From NCBI GenBank assembly GCA_963744905.1, contig CAVUUV010000003.1, positions 513,503 through 577,502 on the forward strand: 64,000 bases of DNA, in the 5' to 3' direction. The position numbers were made by a program, and so were the translations under genes. Source of the stretch: an uncultured Acidimicrobiia bacterium. Its GTDB lineage: Bacteria; Actinomycetota; Acidimicrobiia; Spongiisociales; ZC4RG35. Of this stretch, positions 9,647 to 51,333 are shown piece by piece (position 1 is the stretch's first letter; each line of letters opens with the position of its first letter). The notes below the pieces were generated by a model. It saw only the letters and a list, made by a program, of their open reading frames with translations, did not search any database and had not been told where the DNA came from.

Positions 9647-10402
9647 ATGACCGCGATCGACACCGCCAGACCAGGACCGGCAACTGAGTCGGCTGAACCG
9701 GATCCAAGGTGGCGAAGGTTCTACACCATCGGAGGAATCTGCGCGGCTCTATACGTACTCGTCGCCATCTTCATTCCGGGTGTTATGGCCGCCGCCGTCA
9801 GCGACTTCTGGGACATCCTCGTCGACCCGCCTGCGCTGCTCGCCTTCATCGGCGACAACAAGCTGTACTGGCACATCGTCCAGGGAGGAGTCCTCGAAGC
9901 CAGCATCCTCCTGATCATCACCTTCGCCGCGCTCTATCTGACCTTGAAGCAAGTCGACCGGGTCTTTGCGGCCATCGGGGCGATCATCTCGATCACGACA
10001 CAACTCCTGTTCATGGCCTACTACCCGGTCCTGTTGGGTCTGGTCTACCTCAGCGACCAGTATGCAACGGCAGATGCAGCCCGCCAGGCCAGCCTGGAAT
10101 CGTCCGCCGAGGCGCTGATCGCGCAGAACAGCGCCTTCAACCCGACCTACGAGGCCTTGATGGGACTCGGGATCCTGTTCCTCTCCCTGGCCATGCTCAA
10201 AGGCGTCTTCCCCAGATTCGTCGCCTACCTCGGCATAGCGACCTGCGCCGCCGCCTTCGTCGGCCTATCCCTCTACCCGATCGTGGGACTCGGCTACTTC
10301 TTGTGGTGGGCCTTCGCCATCGCCTGGCTCCTCGCCGTCGGATGGCAGCTGTACAAGCTGGGGAGAACGCGTGAGACGGCCGGCCGCTCCGCCTCAGGCT
10401 GA
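9647..10402 (+). CDS. DUF4386-like multi-pass membrane protein
   Basis: 251-aa hydrophobic protein with the same topology and N-terminal motif as the ORF at 5508-6341. Confidence 0.5.
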   Translation: MTAIDTARPGPATESAEPDPRWRRFYTIGGICAALYVLVAIFIPGVMAAAVSDFWDILVDPPALLAFIGDNKLYWHIVQGGVLEASILLIITFAALYLTLKQVDRVFAAIGAIISITTQLLFMAYYPVLLGLVYLSDQYATADAARQASLESSAEALIAQNSAFNPTYEALMGLGILFLSLAMLKGVFPRFVAYLGIATCAAAFVGLSLYPIVGLGYFLWWAFAIAWLLAVGWQLYKLGRTRETAGRSASG

Positions 10403-21541: not shown

Positions 21542-21619
21542 TTTCCAAGATACAGGCCAGGACCCGACAAACCCGACGTTTGCCCCCACGAGGGACGAGG
21601 CGGGCGGACCAGCCCCGGC

Positions 21620-21727
21620 TTCTTTGGACGCTGAGGAACGCCCCTCCCCTTCTTTGGACCGTCGCCGTCGCTATGCGTTCCTGGCGGTCCAAAGAAGCCG
21701 TAAACCGTTCCCCGGGGTCCAAAGAAC
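21620..21727. repeat. Palindromic repeat element, copy A: TTCTTTGGAC-N20-TTCTTTGGACCG-loop23-CGGTCCAAAGAA-N18-GGTCCAAAGAA
   Basis: Four 10-mers as two direct plus two inverted copies. The loop contains TCGCTATGCGTTC, which is also the core of copy B at 51174-51280. Lies between the 3' end of the Lon-PDZ gene and the 5' end of the DivIVA-like gene. Confidence 0.6.
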
Positions 21728-36512: not shown

Positions 36513-37463
36513 CTAGGCGAGGGACATGGAGTCGACGAACTTCTGCAGCCGCTCCCGGGTGACGAAACGGATCCGGGGATCGCGACGTTCACGGTCGTAG
36601 ATGGAGAACGGGGCGAACTTCTCCGACACCAGCATCCCTCGATCCTGGCCCGACTGCTCGAAGGAAAGCACGAACGACCTGATAGTGCGGTCCTCCACCT
36701 GGGGGTAGTCGCCCGGTTCGTAGGGATCGACCATGACGAAGGTGGACTGCCCGGCCCGGGTGGCGGTGTAGATCCCTGGAGCCACGCCGGGCGTGACCGT
36801 GTACCCGAACAAAGCGAGGATGCCGGTCACCATTTCCCCTGCCGTCATATCCTCCGGATCCACTCCCTGAGCACGCAGCCCGGTGTCGACCGCCTTGGGC
36901 AGACGTATCTGGTCGGACAGGGGAGCGAGCTCATCCGATGTGCTCGGCTCAACGGTCTCGGGGATGACGGGAGGGCCGGTCTCGAATTCCGCCGCCAGAG
37001 GGTCGGCACCGATCGAGTGCAGTTGGAGCATCTCGGTCATGCGGCTGGGTGGAGGCAGGATTCCCGGAGTCTCGAGGGACTTGCGACCGACCTCTCGTTT
37101 CTCGCCCTTTCCCGCCAGGGCCACGACCTGGGTCACGTCGTCGATAGGGAGACTGTGACGCTTCTCCCTGACCACCTCGATCGCCTCACCCACCAGGAGG
37201 TCTGCCAGCACCTCGTCGCCGTCCGCCGGAAAGGGGACGTTGAACGCCACCCGCGCCTCGTTCTCGTGAACGTGGAAACTCTCGACTTCGGGACGGGGAT
37301 GAACGAAGTCCGGCATTGGTGGAGGAGCCTGGCCCCGGCGGCCGCGAGCCTGGCGCTGCGGCTTCTCGATGCCGATCTGCTTGCGACGCCGCTCGATGTA
37401 CCAGTTGGCTGCAAGCAAGAGTACGGCCAGCAAGATGAGGAGGATCCCCAGATTCTTCAACAA
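36513..37463 (-). CDS. Hypothetical N-terminally membrane-anchored protein
   Basis: 316 aa with TM MLKNLGILLILLAVLLLAANWY and a Pro-rich linker. The C-terminal globular domain matches no confident family. Its start overlaps the ClC gene by 7 nt. Confidence 0.45.
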   Translation of the reverse strand: MLKNLGILLILLAVLLLAANWYIERRRKQIGIEKPQRQARGRRGQAPPPMPDFVHPRPEVESFHVHENEARVAFNVPFPADGDEVLADLLVGEAIEVVREKRHSLPIDDVTQVVALAGKGEKREVGRKSLETPGILPPPSRMTEMLQLHSIGADPLAAEFETGPPVIPETVEPSTSDELAPLSDQIRLPKAVDTGLRAQGVDPEDMTAGEMVTGILALFGYTVTPGVAPGIYTATRAGQSTFVMVDPYEPGDYPQVEDRTIRSFVLSFEQSGQDRGMLVSEKFAPFSIYDRERRDPRIRFVTRERLQKFVDSMSLA

Positions 37464-39660: not shown

Positions 39661-40110
39661 ATGGTGCCGATCATGCGTGTCCTGGAAGGCGAATGGGAGG
39701 GTCGTGGGCATGGGAGCTACCCCACCATCGAGGATTTCGATTACCTCGAAACCGTGGTCCTGGCCCGGCTGCCCGACAAGCCCATCCTGGCCTACACCCA
39801 GCGCACCCGCTCACCTTCCGGCGCACCCCTCCATGCCGAGTCGGGCTTCTATCGCTTCGACGGAGACGGGGGCGTCGAACTGGTCATCGCCCAGCCCACC
39901 GGGATCGCCGAGACCCATAGGGGCGAGATCACGGACACGGGGCTGAAGCTGGTCATGACCGGGCTGGTCACCACGCCCACCGCGGTCGAGGTGCGTGAGG
40001 TGCGAAGGCGACTGTCGGTTGTGGGCGACAGTTTGACCTATCGGTTGGACATGGCGGCCGTCGGCCAGGACCTGACCCTGCATTTGGAGGGTGAGCTGGG
40101 CCGGGTGTGA
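39661..40110 (+). CDS. Nitrobindin/peroxynitrite-isomerase-like FABP-fold protein (DUF1794/THAP4-like heme-binding beta-barrel)
   Basis: LEGEWEGRGHGSYPTIEDFDYLETVVL...PILAYTQRTRSPSGAPLHAESGFYRF...VELVIAQPTGIAETHRG matches the nitrobindin pattern. Confidence 0.6.
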   Translation: MVPIMRVLEGEWEGRGHGSYPTIEDFDYLETVVLARLPDKPILAYTQRTRSPSGAPLHAESGFYRFDGDGGVELVIAQPTGIAETHRGEITDTGLKLVMTGLVTTPTAVEVREVRRRLSVVGDSLTYRLDMAAVGQDLTLHLEGELGRV

Positions 40111-40949
40111 CCACCCGGTTAGCGTCGAGCGCCGTGAAGCCAGTCAGTCACGTCGGCAGGAGGATCGACCTCTCCTACCCATCCAACCGCTGGGCGGTGG
40201 GCCTTACCCTTGTCGCGGGCCTGGCGGGTCTCATCCATCCCGAGGGCCGCAACTCCTTCTGGGCCGCCTTCCAGAGCGGGGGAACGGTCATTCTCACCTG
40301 GGCACTGACTCGGGAGCTCGACCCGGACCGGCCCGCCACCTCGGTGGTGGCGGCCGTCGCCGCCGGCGTGGTGGCGGTGTGGACCGGCGACGCCAGCCTC
40401 ATCGCCCTGGGTGGGCTGGTGGCGGCGGCCCGGATCCTGACCAGATCGACCGGTTCGTGGCCCCTCCTCACCGACATCGTGGTGATCGGAGCCGGAGTGG
40501 GCATCTTCGCCCGCAGCCCGCTGACCTGGGCATCGGGATTGGCCGTGGCGGCGGCGGTGGCCCTCGACACGGCCATGATCCATCCCGCCCCGCGCTATCA
40601 CGTCTGGCTGGCGGGAGCGATAGGAGTGGCGGTCACCCTGTCCGCCGTCATCTCCGACGCCCTCCCCCGGGACTGGTCCCCACCCAGCATCGCCACCATC
40701 GTCATCGCCATCCTCGGAACTCTGGCCGGCCTCCTCACCCCGGTCCTCCCCCTCAACTCCTTCAGCGACTTCCGCAACACCCGCCTCGACCCCAGCCGCC
40801 TCCGGGTGGCTCGCCGCCTCGTCGTCGCCACCCTCGCCCTCGGCGTCGTGGCCGGTGGCGCCGCCACCGGCGCCACCTCCTGGCCCGCCTGGCTGACCCT
40901 CATCCTGGCAGCACTGTTCCGCGTTTTTATCAGCGAAACGGGCCCCTGA
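40107..40949 (+). CDS. Hypothetical polytopic membrane protein (GTG start overlapping the nitrobindin stop, GTGA)
   Basis: 280-aa Ala/Gly/Val-rich protein with 7-8 hydrophobic helices. Confidence 0.45.
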   Translation: MTTRLASSAVKPVSHVGRRIDLSYPSNRWAVGLTLVAGLAGLIHPEGRNSFWAAFQSGGTVILTWALTRELDPDRPATSVVAAVAAGVVAVWTGDASLIALGGLVAAARILTRSTGSWPLLTDIVVIGAGVGIFARSPLTWASGLAVAAAVALDTAMIHPAPRYHVWLAGAIGVAVTLSAVISDALPRDWSPPSIATIVIAILGTLAGLLTPVLPLNSFSDFRNTRLDPSRLRVARRLVVATLALGVVAGGAATGATSWPAWLTLILAALFRVFISETGP

Positions 40950-41096
40950 GGGGGCCGTTTCGTAGGGGAGAACGCGCTACGAAACCGCCCTTTAGTCCCC
41001 AAGACGGGCCTGATGCGGCCATTGGAACACGCAACCAGGGATTTTCTCCCCTACGGATCGGCCCCTCACAGGGGCCGATCTGCTGATAAAAACGCG
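40920..41096. repeat. Nested inverted-repeat element: outer IR CGCGTTTTTATCAGC / GCTGATAAAAACGCG enclosing two G/C hairpins
   Basis: Outer arms at 40920-40934 and 41082-41096. Hairpin 1 is GAAACGGGCCCCTGAGGGGGCCGTTTC (40935-40961). Hairpin 2 is GATCGGCCCCTCACAGGGGCCGATC (41056-41080). The left outer arm encodes the last codons of the upstream gene. The whole lies between convergent genes. Confidence 0.45.
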
Positions 41097-41098
41097 GA

Positions 41099-41968
41099 TC
41101 AGATCCGGGTTCCTACTCCGCGTCGCTCGGCTTCTTCGAGGGCGGCGGCGGCGGCGGTGATGTCCTGGCTGGCGATTCCGACGGACTTGAAGAAGGTGAA
41201 ATCGGAGATGATGTCGGGGACGCCGTCTTCGAGCAGGTCGGTCAGGGTGGCATCCGGGCCTCGCTCGGCGGTCAGGAGATCGCCCGCCTCGGCAGCGGCG
41301 GCGTCACGGTCGTCCACCACCACGAAGGAGTGGAGCGTGACCTCGACCGGCACCTCGATCATGCCGGGACGGAAGGCGCCGATGGCGTTGATGTGGGTGC
41401 CCGCCTGAATCGCATCCGGCGAGAACAGGGCCGCGGTAGAGGGAGTGGCACAGGAGACGACGTCGGCAACACCCACGGCCTCATCGGCGGCATCGACCGC
41501 CTCGCCGCCGACCCGTTCCGCCAGGTCTTCGGCTCGGTTGCGGGTCCGCGACCAGACCAGCACCCGTTGGATGGGGCGCACCGTCCGCACCGCCTCGATT
41601 TGATCGAAGGCCATCGCTCCCGCCCCCAGCATGACGAGGACCGAAGCATCTTCTCGCGCCAGTAGCCGTGTGGCCAGGCCGGCACCGGCACCGGTGCGGA
41701 TGGCAGTCAGGGTGGGCCCGTCCACCATCCCCATCGGCGAACCGGATTCGTCCATGACCAAAACTAGCCCGACTGGATTTCCGGGCACGGTCGAGACGAT
41801 CTTGATCCCCGATCTCTCCCCCACCCTGCCCGGCATGTAGAGAGAACCAGCCAGCTCCCGTCGCAATGGCACCTGGCGATCGCTGGAAAAGGCCGCCACC
41901 TGTGACTCAACGGCCAGGTCCATCGGTAGACACTCACGGGTCTGCTGGGCGTCCAGGACCAGCATCAC
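41099..41968 (-). CDS. Ornithine cyclodeaminase/mu-crystallin family protein
   Basis: NAD-binding Rossmann signature VLGAGAMA. Family-typical ...GTHINAIGA... and an N-terminal substrate-domain motif. Confidence 0.7.
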   Translation of the reverse strand: MMLVLDAQQTRECLPMDLAVESQVAAFSSDRQVPLRRELAGSLYMPGRVGERSGIKIVSTVPGNPVGLVLVMDESGSPMGMVDGPTLTAIRTGAGAGLATRLLAREDASVLVMLGAGAMAFDQIEAVRTVRPIQRVLVWSRTRNRAEDLAERVGGEAVDAADEAVGVADVVSCATPSTAALFSPDAIQAGTHINAIGAFRPGMIEVPVEVTLHSFVVVDDRDAAAAEAGDLLTAERGPDATLTDLLEDGVPDIISDFTFFKSVGIASQDITAAAAALEEAERRGVGTRI

Positions 41969-42984
41969 GCAACCGTGACCCGGTAGTCACCCGCTTTCTG
42001 GTCGAATTCCAGGTCGATCAGGCCCCGACGGGCAGCAGCCCGGCAGAACTGAAGAAACCCGCTGTATCCGAACTTCTTCTCCGAGAAGTCGGCCTGGCGC
42101 TTTCGCACTTCATTCTTGAGCCCGGACAGGAACGGCTTGCCGTTGCGCTTCTGAACGTCGGACACGACGCTGACCAGCAGGTCGAAGGCCTGGGCCTCCT
42201 CGGCCCCTCCGGCCGCGATCTGCACCACCGGATCCCCCCGTGCCGGACCTTCGCTCAGCTCGATCACTCCCTGCGACTGCAGGTCGGCCAGCAACTCGCC
42301 GAAGCCCCGATATCCGTAGTCGGCCTCCGAAAAGGTGGAATCCTTGCGCAGAAGGGCTCGTTTGAGCGAAGAAGCAAGCACCGTATCGCCCGAGCTGCGC
42401 TGCAGTCCTGCCAGGGTGCGGGTGATAAGCGACTCGATCGTCTCCTCACCGCTTTCGGCGGGCGGGGCCTCGGCCTGGGTCTTCTTGGTCTCCTCCGAGG
42501 CCCGGCGTGGCTCCACCCCCTCCAGGTTCTCGTAGAAGAGGAACTCGTCGCAGGCCGGGGGGAGCAGCTTGGAAGTGGAGCCCTTCACGCCCACCCCGAT
42601 AACCCGCTTGTTCAGCTCGCGCAACTTGTAGACCAGGGGCGTGAAGTCCGAGTCGCCGGTGCAGATGACGAAGGTAGTGACGTAGCCTCGCTCGAAGGCC
42701 TGTTCCAGGGCATCCACCGCCATCTTGATGTCGGCGGCGTTCTTGCGCACCATGCCCAGACGCTGGGGAATCTCGATCAACTCGACATGGTGACGGGTGA
42801 GCATGCGCCGGTCCTCGTCGAACATGGACCAGTCGGCATATGCCCGCCGCGACACCACCCGCCCCCGTTCGGCCAGGGCGTCGGCAATGGGGCCAAAATC
42901 GAATTGCATCCCCCCGAGGGAGTCCCGGGCGCCAATGGCCAGGTTCTCGTAGTCCAGATAGAGGGCGATGCGTTCTTCATCCAT
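41965..42984 (-). CDS. NYN (LabA-like PIN-fold) nuclease domain protein with two C-terminal OST-HTH/LOTUS domains
   Basis: IALYLDYENLAIGA...VICTGDSDFTPLVYKLRELNKRVIGVG forms the NYN core. Two repeats end ...YGYRGFGELL... and ...FGYSGFLQF..., the OST-HTH motifs. ATGA overlap with the downstream OCD-family gene. Confidence 0.65.
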   Translation of the reverse strand: MDEERIALYLDYENLAIGARDSLGGMQFDFGPIADALAERGRVVSRRAYADWSMFDEDRRMLTRHHVELIEIPQRLGMVRKNAADIKMAVDALEQAFERGYVTTFVICTGDSDFTPLVYKLRELNKRVIGVGVKGSTSKLLPPACDEFLFYENLEGVEPRRASEETKKTQAEAPPAESGEETIESLITRTLAGLQRSSGDTVLASSLKRALLRKDSTFSEADYGYRGFGELLADLQSQGVIELSEGPARGDPVVQIAAGGAEEAQAFDLLVSVVSDVQKRNGKPFLSGLKNEVRKRQADFSEKKFGYSGFLQFCRAAARRGLIDLEFDQKAGDYRVTVA

Positions 42985-43146
42985 CCCCTGGAGGGTAGGA
43001 CGTCCCGGTAGTCTCCATGAGCATGGGCGATGACGCTTGCTGGCTCAGCCGGGTATGCCTCGAATGCGGGCGCTTCCTCGACGACGACCGTTCAGAGGAG
43101 GAGACCTGTCCACACTGCGGGGCGGAACTGGTTGCCAACGAACCCG

Positions 43147-44514
43147 CTAGCGGTACGACTCGCACGTGAGCCGGTATTCGCAGCCCCCGCACCAGGGACC
43201 GACGGAATATGGGGGCTGGAGCGGGTCTTCCCAATCCCAGCTGTGAGCCACAGACACCCGTTGGCGAAGTCGGTGATAGGCGGCGGACCGCTCCCCCGGT
43301 GAGACCATGACCACCTCACATTGGGGTGGATCCTGGCGCACGTAGTGACGGTGAATCACTATGGGCCGGTCCGGATCGATCCATCTCCCCATGCCAATGG
43401 TGTAGAGGTCGTCCTCGATCCCGGTCTCTCCGTACCCACCTGTCTTCAGCTCAACTGCTACCGGGGCCGCGGCAGCATCCCGGGCTGTTAGGTCGACGAA
43501 CCCGATCACGGTGACTCCGCGGGTCTCGGCCCGCTCCCCCTCGAGCAGTGTCGCCCCGATCGGGAACTCGGTGGCTCGCACGCTCAGGCCTTCCGACTCG
43601 AGCAGGCTCCTGTGTCGTTCCCACATTGTCTGCAGATCGGCCAACTCGGAGGGAGGAACGCCGCCCAGGAAGTCGGCGGCCGCTGCCTCGGGATCGTCGG
43701 CTTCTTCCGCCGCGGCCACCAGAGCGTGGAACAGTCTTCCCTGAGACAGAGGAGCAGCAGCCTCGACTTCGTCACCATCGTCCCGCGGGACCCCGTGCAC
43801 CCGGCGCCACGCCACTCGCCGCTGGCACCTCTCCACATCCTCGATGTCGGTCTTGGTAAGGCTGAGGGTACGGGCGTTGGTGGGCACCACGCGGTCGGCA
43901 GGGAAGGCCCCGCACAGTGCGCTTCGCTCGCACCACACGCAGGTCGGACCGGGTCGAACCCCGGAACGGTGGAGCACCGGAGCTTCCTCGACCAGGCAGT
44001 GGAGCCTTTGCTCCAGATCGGATGGTGGCGTGATCGGCTCCACTTCGCCCGGCCACGCCATCAGATCCGAGAAGCTCTCACCGTCGTCGGCCGATCGCCA
44101 CAGGACCGCGGCTTCATCGGATGTGGTCGAAGACCTCCCGGTCTTGAGGCGGATGTGCTCCATGGCGCCGTCGGGGTGCTCGAGGGACAAGGTGAGATAC
44201 ACACCGGTACTCACGCCCGCCTCCTCCGCATCGAAGGTGACGGTGCGCCCCTCCAGATCGGCCCGGACGTCGGGAGGAATGGGGAGGACCCGGAGTGCAT
44301 TGAGGAACATCCGTCGGATCAGGTCGCGTTCGAGGGGGCTGAGCGCCTCTAGATGGCGCCGACCGACTTCGTCGCGGTCCTGGTCGGGGTTGGACCAGGC
44401 GTCCACCAGCAAGTCGCGCAGGATCTTCCACCGATCCAGTGCCGCCCGGGGACGTTTGGTTCGCGAACGCCCCCCCGCCTCGGGACAGGGATGCCCCAGC
44501 TGAGAAAGCGACAT
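43147..44514 (-). CDS. PD-(D/E)XK nuclease superfamily protein with C-terminal Cas4/AddB-like Fe-S cysteine cluster
   Basis: Motifs GFVDLTARD...VELKTG (D...ELK) and C-terminal C...WCGGCEYRLTC (C-x2-C-x5-C), plus an upstream Cys. The ORF track extends it to 45126, but that part overlaps the GH15 gene; the ATG at 44514 is chosen. Confidence 0.55.
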   Translation of the reverse strand: MSLSQLGHPCPEAGGRSRTKRPRAALDRWKILRDLLVDAWSNPDQDRDEVGRRHLEALSPLERDLIRRMFLNALRVLPIPPDVRADLEGRTVTFDAEEAGVSTGVYLTLSLEHPDGAMEHIRLKTGRSSTTSDEAAVLWRSADDGESFSDLMAWPGEVEPITPPSDLEQRLHCLVEEAPVLHRSGVRPGPTCVWCERSALCGAFPADRVVPTNARTLSLTKTDIEDVERCQRRVAWRRVHGVPRDDGDEVEAAAPLSQGRLFHALVAAAEEADDPEAAAADFLGGVPPSELADLQTMWERHRSLLESEGLSVRATEFPIGATLLEGERAETRGVTVIGFVDLTARDAAAAPVAVELKTGGYGETGIEDDLYTIGMGRWIDPDRPIVIHRHYVRQDPPQCEVVMVSPGERSAAYHRLRQRVSVAHSWDWEDPLQPPYSVGPWCGGCEYRLTCESYR

Positions 44515-44667
44515 CTTGCGGAGATTGGCCGTCGGGCGAAACGTCACTGCGGCCCAAGGTAGCCGGGAAGACATCGACGATGGTGACATCGCACGACCAT
44601 CGCCCCCTCTAGCCTTGGGGGCTGCCACCCGAGGAAAGGGGCGCCAATAATCCGCCCAGATCGTTAT

Positions 44668-51089: not shown

Positions 51090-51173
51090 GACACTCCTTC
51101 TGTGTCGCGTTCGACCCTGAACTACCCCGCTAGGTCCCGGTTCAAACCGCTCACAACCCCGGCCGGGCGTCGT

Positions 51174-51280
51174 TTCTTTGGACACTCACGAACGCTTCCC
51201 AGCTTCTTTGGACCGTGACTATCGCTATGCGTTCGCCACGGTCCAAAGAAGGGGAGGGGCGTTCCCCACGGTCCAAAGAA
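51174..51280. repeat. Palindromic repeat element, copy B (same architecture as 21620-21727)
   Basis: TTCTTTGGAC at 51174 and 51204; GTCCAAAGAA at 51241 and 51271; loop contains TCGCTATGCGTTC. Lies between the 3' end of qcrB and the CsbD gene. Confidence 0.6.
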
Positions 51281-51333
51281 AGGGGTGCAAGTAGCCCTCC
51301 CCCGACGTCCGGCGCGGGGAACGCCCCTCGGGG

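Follow-up and report, generated by a model that had tools for sequence, protein, structure and literature searches.

The stretch of DNA considered here, called the window throughout, comprises 64,000 nucleotides (nt) of a contig (CAVUUV010000003.1) from an uncultured Acidimicrobiia bacterium. It is high-GC DNA (60-68% GC), and three genes stand close together on its minus strand: one for a Cas4-like nuclease, one for a protein that joins a NYN domain to two LOTUS domains, and one for an enzyme of the ornithine cyclodeaminase (OCD)/mu-crystallin family. All three open reading frames (ORFs) were confirmed on that strand. The original prediction, made from the sequence letters, saw in them a nuclease-rich module of the kind in which new defense, RNA-processing or stress systems are found. 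Its domain calls were right: NYN, OST-HTH, OCD and PD-(D/E)XK are each found by Pfam above the gathering cut-off, against which the Pfam families were scored. The module itself has fared less well; it is probable, in our judgment, that the locus consists of three or four independent transcription units and is not one system.

The middle gene (41965-42984, minus strand) encodes a protein of 339 amino acids (aa), here NYN-LOTUS. A PIN-like nuclease domain of the LabA/DUF88 type, NYN (about 42532-42972), is followed by what appear to be two OST-HTH/LOTUS domains (LOTUS-1, about 42217-42438; LOTUS-2, about 41971-42204). The NYN match (PF01936) reaches 111.1 bits (cut-off 24.2) and aligns residues 5-151 with model positions 1-144 of 145. 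With OST-HTH (PF12872) the score is 32.6 bits for the protein as a whole (cut-off 23.8); the copies scanned singly give 20.1 and 19.4 bits, each below that cut-off. Two confident winged-helix modules in the AlphaFold model favor the two LOTUS domains first called. A LOTUS module superposes on the LOTUS domain of TDRD7 (3rco/2lh9) with TMt 0.77-0.79 and a root-mean-square deviation of 2.0-2.5. Six residues of the nuclease domain (D11, N14, D85, D111, S112 and D113) are invariant in an alignment of 16 homologues; D11, D85, D111 and D113 would be the acidic catalytic positions. The family profile matches 2qip by sequence (E = 2.6e-11), and Foldseek matches the model to the same structure by fold (E = 4.7e-7, TMt 0.64); 2qip (VPA0982) is the DUF88/LabA-type NYN protein on which the family was defined. 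The remaining fold matches were set aside as noise, on account of the low confidence of the model. By analogy with its relatives, NYN-LOTUS may be a metal-dependent endoribonuclease whose LOTUS domains recruit G-rich or structured RNA.

The protein is 100% identical to that of another Acidimicrobiia metagenome-assembled genome (GCA_049579045.1), and the best 120 database matches to it are all at least 70% identical. At least 568 relatives occur in species-representative genomes; 80 loci were kept from the relatives listed, and they come from Acidimicrobiia, Egibacteraceae and Actinomycetes. Identity with the Micromonospora proteins is 62-64%, and in the same genomes NYN-LOTUS is more conserved than either OCD (54-85%) or the nuclease (58-84%). 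Locus groupings were read off a neighbor-joining tree of NYN, in which the loci of Micromonospora and related Actinomycetes group together. Given this identity and this grouping, NYN-LOTUS behaves as a vertically inherited core gene and not as a defense gene. It appears, from these comparisons, to be under strong constraint in Actinomycetota, and it behaves as what may be an RNA-turnover or processing factor of that phylum. The neighborhoods of 82 related loci were compared, using tblastn with the window proteins and all-against-all ORF clustering; among the 45 loci that fall outside one Acidimicrobiia clade, described below, the clustering revealed no conserved NYN neighbor. A literature search on actinobacterial NYN proteins found nothing relevant.

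Constancy extends to the DNA just upstream. A -10-like hexamer, TACCCT (42992-42997, minus strand), lies 7 nt before the NYN ATG. The pattern TANNNT occurs 6-9 nt (mostly 6-7) before the NYN start in 76 of 83 loci and in none at four control offsets; the hexamers seen include TACGCT, TACCCT, TACATT, TAGGCT and similar. In Mycobacterium tuberculosis TANNNT is the -10 box that precedes most of the transcription start sites mapped, and from many of these sites leaderless mRNAs arise (PMC3898074); the motif and spacing at NYN agree with this mycobacterial box. As the hexamer keeps its spacing in so many loci, NYN is predicted to have a promoter of its own and a leaderless mRNA, whichever gene lies upstream. 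Within the window such boxes stand 6-9 nt before the nuclease gene and a small zinc-ribbon ORF as well as before NYN, which suggests heavy use of leaderless mRNA in this Acidimicrobiia lineage. Scans for canonical terminators and sigma-70 promoters gave counts not above shuffled background.

Immediately 3' of NYN lies the OCD gene (41099-41968, minus strand), which encodes a putative NAD(P)-dependent enzyme of 289 aa; its match to OCD_Mu_crystall (PF02423) scores 139.5 bits against a cut-off of 24. The junction of the two genes reads GCG TGA TGC TGG. They had been described as tightly coupled through an ATGA overlap; the coupling stands, and the overlap is instead GTGA (if OCD begins at GTG) or TGATG (if at ATG). 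Either overlap makes the pair translationally coupled.

The partnership extends beyond this genome, within limits. Counts in the clade are restricted to the 33 loci with enough sequence 3' of NYN. OCD lies there in 26 of these and is absent in seven; of the 45 loci outside the clade, not one has it after NYN. The pairing is also found in L085, reached through the nuclease query, and in L090 and L091, reached through the OCD query. Fifteen of the 26 carry a 411-aa FAD oxidoreductase of the DAO family between NYN and OCD, separated from each by 0-17 nt; in 11 loci, as in the window, OCD directly abuts NYN. In three further loci (L019, L020 and L031) DAO directly follows NYN; OCD is absent in two of the three, and the contig of L019 ends before the OCD position. 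From this distribution the ancestral order in the clade was probably NYN-DAO-OCD. The tree calls for several losses of OCD within the clade, and loci without OCD retain both NYN and a downstream block comprising a CLC channel gene, a gene for a protein of about 316 aa, TatA and a sigma factor. General synteny is thus conserved at least as well as the adjacency of NYN and OCD.

In its substrate the OCD enzyme is less easily placed. It falls short of the cut-off of every NCBIfam equivalog scored, namely those for ornithine cyclodeaminase, Pyr2C/Pip2C reductase, archaeal alanine dehydrogenase, SbnB, EutC and BhcD. The best match is PRK06141, a reductase of delta-1-pyrroline-2-carboxylate (Pyr2C) and piperideine-2-carboxylate (Pip2C), at 181.8 bits where 322 are required; alanine dehydrogenase gives 120.9 (cut-off 409) and ornithine cyclodeaminase (PRK07589) 80.4 (cut-off 350). 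The closest solved structures are ketimine reductase/mu-crystallin, the Pyr2C reductase 6t3e and archaeal alanine dehydrogenase. Like the imine reductases (6t3e; PRK06141, NF045512; CRYM, 4bv8 and 2i99), the enzyme belongs to the same Pfam family and has a Rossmann core; unlike them, it is short (288-290 aa as against 310-350) and here has no oxidase partner. Gene context points the same way as the score ranking. The DAO protein is most similar, among NCBIfam families, to N-methyltryptophan/sarcosine-type oxidases and to D-amino-acid dehydrogenase, and an OCD homologue that is 62% identical adjoins AcnX genes, with no NYN. FAD amino-acid oxidases and AcnX are makers of cyclic imino acids (PMC5144071); DAO would be expected to form one from a proline- or pipecolate-type substrate. 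On score ranking and gene context OCD is probably a cyclic imino-acid reductase of the Pyr2C/Pip2C type. The region 3234-5867 of L092 offers useful context for assigning the substrate.

Beyond the OCD gene is a long imperfect palindrome (40914-41102), placed between OCD and a convergent ORF of 280 aa and overlapping the final 36 nt of the latter. Its arms are 59 nt long (40914-40972 and 41044-41102) and 80% complementary, and each holds a GC-rich hairpin of its own; the RNA would fold with -118.8 kcal/mol (z = -9.0). The nested palindrome first reported at 40920-41096 is thus real, with a somewhat wider extent. Among the fetched loci only the closest relative, L005, shows a similarly long hairpin at this position (9885-10066, z = -6.05); there the outer and inner repeat boxes are kept and one inner hairpin differs in sequence. 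Two other accounts of the palindrome were tried. As a known structured RNA it found no match: Rfam at the gathering threshold gave only a tRNA elsewhere in the window, and at an E-value threshold nothing beyond sub-threshold models of miRNA precursors, to which any long hairpin will match. As a mobile repeat or miniature inverted-repeat transposable element it was also rejected, the outer 16-mer having no copies beyond the two arms in either the window or L005. The palindrome is probably a lineage-specific, bidirectional transcription stop, I-shaped and without U-tails, if its shape and placement are a guide.

The third gene (43147-44547, minus strand) encodes a stand-alone Cas4/RecB-like iron-sulfur (Fe-S) nuclease of the PD-(D/E)XK type. 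A length of 456 aa had been given for it; homologue alignment and the public gene call move the start to the GTG at 44547, for 466 aa. PDDEXK_1 matches residues 219-451 with 40.4 bits against a cut-off of 22. HHalign aligns the N half with the C half (probability 82%, E = 1e-5, 173 columns), and the cysteines and LKTG motifs fall together. The protein is thus an internal tandem duplication, in whose N-terminal copy the Asp and Glu needed for catalysis have been lost.

The two copies can be described further from the columns that are invariant in 17 homologues. In the C-terminal copy (43150-43893), presumably the active one, D341, E355, K357 and Y371 are invariant, together with C230, C442, C445 and C451; the last three form the C-x2-C-x5-C motif (43162-43191) that had been noted from the start and that proves invariant. 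The N-terminal copy (43894-44547) reads RLKTGR for the ELKTG of the active copy and has L at the motif-II Asp position. This degenerate copy keeps four invariant cysteines of its own (C10, C192, C195 and C201), with C-x2-C-x5-C at 43912-43941.

The structural model (mean confidence, pLDDT, 72.5) is matched by Foldseek with probability 1.0 to AdnA/AdnB (6ppr, 9np6), the Argonaute-associated, Cas4-family ACE1 (9iab), Cas4 SSO0001 (4ic1), Exo5, MGME1 and RecE; Dna2 is also among the matches, and the family profile matches the AdnA nuclease domain weakly. The likeness to Cas4 is visible from sequence in the D...ExK motif and the four-Cys set (one upstream Cys plus the C-terminal C-x2-C-x5-C), and two Cas4 structures (4ic1 and 8d3l) match the fold. 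Unlike Cas4, the nuclease has no cas, CRISPR or Argonaute context (no cas genes in seven nuclease neighborhoods, no Argonaute nearby), and it is a tandem duplication whose degenerate N copy keeps its four cysteines. Unlike AddB and AdnAB, it has no UvrD-like helicase motor, fused or adjoining: the 466-aa protein has PDDEXK_1 only, and in all contexts viewed no helicase gene adjoins it. The family is very small: 5.8 billion proteins contain 30 clusters of it at 90% identity, and a profile search among 1.84 billion gave 86 representatives at 50% identity. Where a contig is available, most members measure about 465-500 aa. By analogy the enzyme may act in processing of DNA ends or single-stranded DNA, as do AdnAB nuclease domains, Exo5 or Cas4, and we infer that it is unconnected to CRISPR or to NYN and OCD.

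The distribution of the nuclease bears on the last point. The trio of nuclease, NYN and OCD does recur, in L005, L006, L008 and L085, and probably also in one soil-metagenome contig (P0138, P0015 and P0277, for all of which the longest contig is given as 35,100 bp, and two of which have consecutive locus tags). Beyond these the nuclease goes its own way: no more than about five close relatives have it beside NYN, and homologues of 53-60% identity stand without NYN or OCD in L086-L089. The genes around stand-alone nucleases are of other kinds (FGase/MATCAP/GSH-S, SpoIIE/STAS, adh_short and DUF6798). A -10-like hexamer, TACCTT (44556-44561, minus strand), lies 8 nt before the nuclease GTG and is a predicted leaderless promoter. 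TANNNT occurs 6-9 nt before the nuclease start in eight of eight loci (the window, L005, L006, L008, L085, L086, L088 and L089), including those where the neighbors are unrelated.

Nor is the interval of about 160 bp between nuclease and NYN empty. It holds an unannotated ORF on the plus strand (43017-43169) of 50 aa, or 48 aa from the ATG at 43023, whose sequence MGDDACWLSRVCLECGRFLDD...CPHCGA follows the pattern C...C-x2-C...C-x2-C and gives weak zinc-ribbon Pfam matches. Its amino-acid sequence is conserved in L005, L006 and L008, with nucleotide changes that by eye fall mostly in third codon positions, and a -10-like box (TAGTCT, 43009-43014, plus strand) precedes it; by reading, TANNNT lies 6-8 nt before its ATG in the window and in the same three loci. 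It is divergent from NYN, the two start codons being 32-38 nt apart, and lies back-to-back with the predicted NYN promoter; it is convergent with the nuclease, whose 3' end it overlaps by 23 nt. As it lies on the opposite strand, nuclease and NYN are separated by a gene in this genome.

The flanking genes are ordinary. Upstream and divergent are genes for a GH15/TREH_N hydrolase, a HATPase_c_2 protein, AhpC and a DUF72 protein. Downstream, the convergent 280-aa ORF (40107-40949, plus strand) has no family match and overlaps by 4 nt the stop of the next gene, also convergent, which encodes a THAP4-like heme-binding protein (39661-40110). In L085 the corresponding position is occupied by a 268-aa ORF with no Pfam match. 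Further downstream come the CLC channel, with CBS and TrkA_C domains, and the protein of about 316 aa (36513-37463, minus strand), which has no Pfam or NCBIfam match. This conserved protein (cluster 11) has homologues in 18 loci, where its gene always comes after that of the CLC channel, and across Acidimicrobiia TatA and a sigma/anti-sigma pair come after it. Elsewhere in the window an element of about 110 nt is present in two copies (21616-21726 and 51173-51281), each with four TTCTTTGGAC boxes, two direct and two inverted; the box has 10 matches across the window where about four would be expected by chance. The element could be a repeated operator region or belong to a small repeat-element family.

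These observations are probably best understood by letting each gene be accounted for by its own promoter and its own history. A leaderless promoter (TACCCT) would drive an mRNA carrying NYN-LOTUS and the coupled OCD, which would stop at the hairpin at 40914-41102. NYN-LOTUS is the bacterial MARF1-like protein of the LK-nuclease plus OST-HTH type. OCD would be an NAD(P)H-dependent reductase, taking Pyr2C to L-proline or Pip2C to L-pipecolate; in the ancestor of the clade it would have been paired with a FAD amino-acid oxidase, in the order NYN-DAO-OCD, and the oxidase would then have been lost in this lineage. OCD has the look of what is left of a metabolic pair, DAO-OCD. The most economical reading of the gene orders is that the reductase is part of a small metabolic cassette attached to the NYN unit in one lineage. 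The link between NYN and OCD would be one of co-expression in a lineage-specific operon and most probably not of shared biochemical mechanism; OCD is most likely a metabolic passenger there. The zinc-ribbon gene would be a separate unit, divergent from NYN, and the nuclease another, monocistronic and leaderless, its product a pseudo-dimer in which the C copy is active and the N copy is not.

Several observations pull the other way. Where OCD directly adjoins NYN, the two overlap or are separated by at most 70 nt in 10 of 11 loci, and the tight junction is kept down to 54% OCD identity. The topology of the tree implies at least four independent losses of DAO, and each time OCD stayed beside NYN. 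Outside the clade, L036 carries an inverted DAO-OCD pair 1.6 kb upstream of NYN. The retention of OCD after loss of DAO, taken with the proximity in L036, could be the result of selection for co-expression and not of inertia. In L085 the upstream nuclease gene shares the strand of NYN and is parted from it by 44 nt that hold no ORF; read-through co-transcription from one into the other is possible there. The NYN domain is weakly modeled (pLDDT about 50). Every statement made here on promoters and terminators rests on motifs, and the substrate of OCD is a guess, since all of the equivalog scores fall below cut-off.

The first group of these observations feeds a different view, in which NYN-LOTUS and OCD, with DAO where present, make up a true functional unit of two or three components: an RNase whose activity or targets respond to an imino acid or to NAD(P)H, for example, or one that exerts post-transcriptional control over the metabolism of proline/hydroxyproline or of osmolytes. 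Such a unit would be new, as no paper in the library searched names both families, and the same-strand junction kept through 26 of 33 clade loci and in L085, L090 and L091 speaks for it. We nevertheless hold it to be unlikely. In the 45 loci with no OCD or DAO nearby NYN is equally conserved and has the same promoter, and the seven clade loci that lost OCD kept NYN. The CLC channel, which has no evident link to NYN, persists in the OCD-less loci L012, L015, L029 and L020; synteny at the level of the class could then explain the adjacency. Moreover, OCD homologues occur with AcnX and without NYN, and both DAO with OCD and AcnX with OCD make metabolic sense alone. Somewhat more doubtful again is a bolder combination, in which NYN-LOTUS is tied to the oxidase/reductase pair in metabolite- or redox-gated RNA decay or in osmolyte control, and the nuclease, separately, represents a new pseudo-dimeric stand-alone class acting at DNA ends.

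The nuclease might instead belong with the zinc-ribbon protein, as a convergent pair independent of NYN and OCD in which the zinc ribbon serves as DNA-binding partner or regulator. The two genes do converge and overlap, and the small ORF is kept in the three closest nuclease-NYN relatives; it is absent in L085, no comparable small gene is called beside the nuclease in L086-L089, and it is equally well placed as a divergent partner of NYN. We give this pairing very little weight.

The original proposal, that nuclease, NYN RNase and OCD form one novel defense, stress or RNA-processing system, fares worst. It can point to the co-location of the trio in the window, in L005, L006, L008 and L085 and probably in the soil contig, and to NYN and Cas4-like domains being known in some defense systems. 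PADLOC-DB 2.0 gives no system-level match for the three genes; its single-domain matches are weak (NYN, 25.1 bits; Cas4 on the nuclease, 17.7 bits, E = 9e-4, with no stretch passing), and ten flanking proteins give none. Tandem Repeats Finder found no CRISPR-like array at 30-56 kb, and no mobile-element genes are among those called from about 36.5 to 50.8 kb. A defense island was rejected on the weakness of the PADLOC domain matches and the lack of an array. With nucleases that stand alone in L086-L089 and carry their own -10-like box in every locus, an opposite-strand ORF before NYN here, a NYN gene that is housekeeping-like and not patchy, and flanks of GH15, AhpC, CLC and THAP4-like genes, such a system is extremely improbable and already largely refuted by the neighborhood data.

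Independent transcription units, then, remain the preferred account, and they connect with what is known of each family. In 2010 Anantharaman, Zhang and Aravind described proteins with an LK-nuclease and one or two OST-HTH domains, found no conserved neighborhood and proposed a stand-alone RNA-degrading enzyme (PMC2848206). NYN-LOTUS resembles these, and eukaryotic MARF1/limkain-b1, in having an N-terminal NYN followed by OST-HTH (here apparently duplicated), and like the proteins of the 2010 paper has no conserved neighborhood outside one clade. It differs in belonging to an orthologue group that is 62-64% identical across classes and has a predicted leaderless promoter, and in heading an operon with DAO, OCD or both in one Acidimicrobiia clade. 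LOTUS domains bind G-rich and G-quadruplex (G4) RNA; of the two bacterial ones tested, TP0894 bound and NE0665 did not (Ding et al. 2020, PMC7498356). The literature on RNase activity and G-rich RNA binding concerns other NYN-LOTUS members (PMC7498356, PMC6217404).

Three things described here appear to be undescribed so far: the conserved leaderless promoter predicted for NYN-LOTUS, the NYN-(DAO)-OCD operon, and the tandem-duplicated family of Fe-S Cas4-like nucleases. Neither the NYN-LOTUS nor the nuclease finding alters the current paradigm, and the hoped-for defense or stress system is without support. The NYN-LOTUS (MARF1-like) proteins of bacteria, known from 2010 on, are to our knowledge functionally uncharacterized. 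For the actinobacterial members, conservation at the level of a core gene, a predicted leaderless mRNA and the DAO/OCD operon would now provide testable partners. The duplicated nuclease, with one copy apparently dead, would be a natural pseudo-dimer in which the engagement of DNA ends may be studied.

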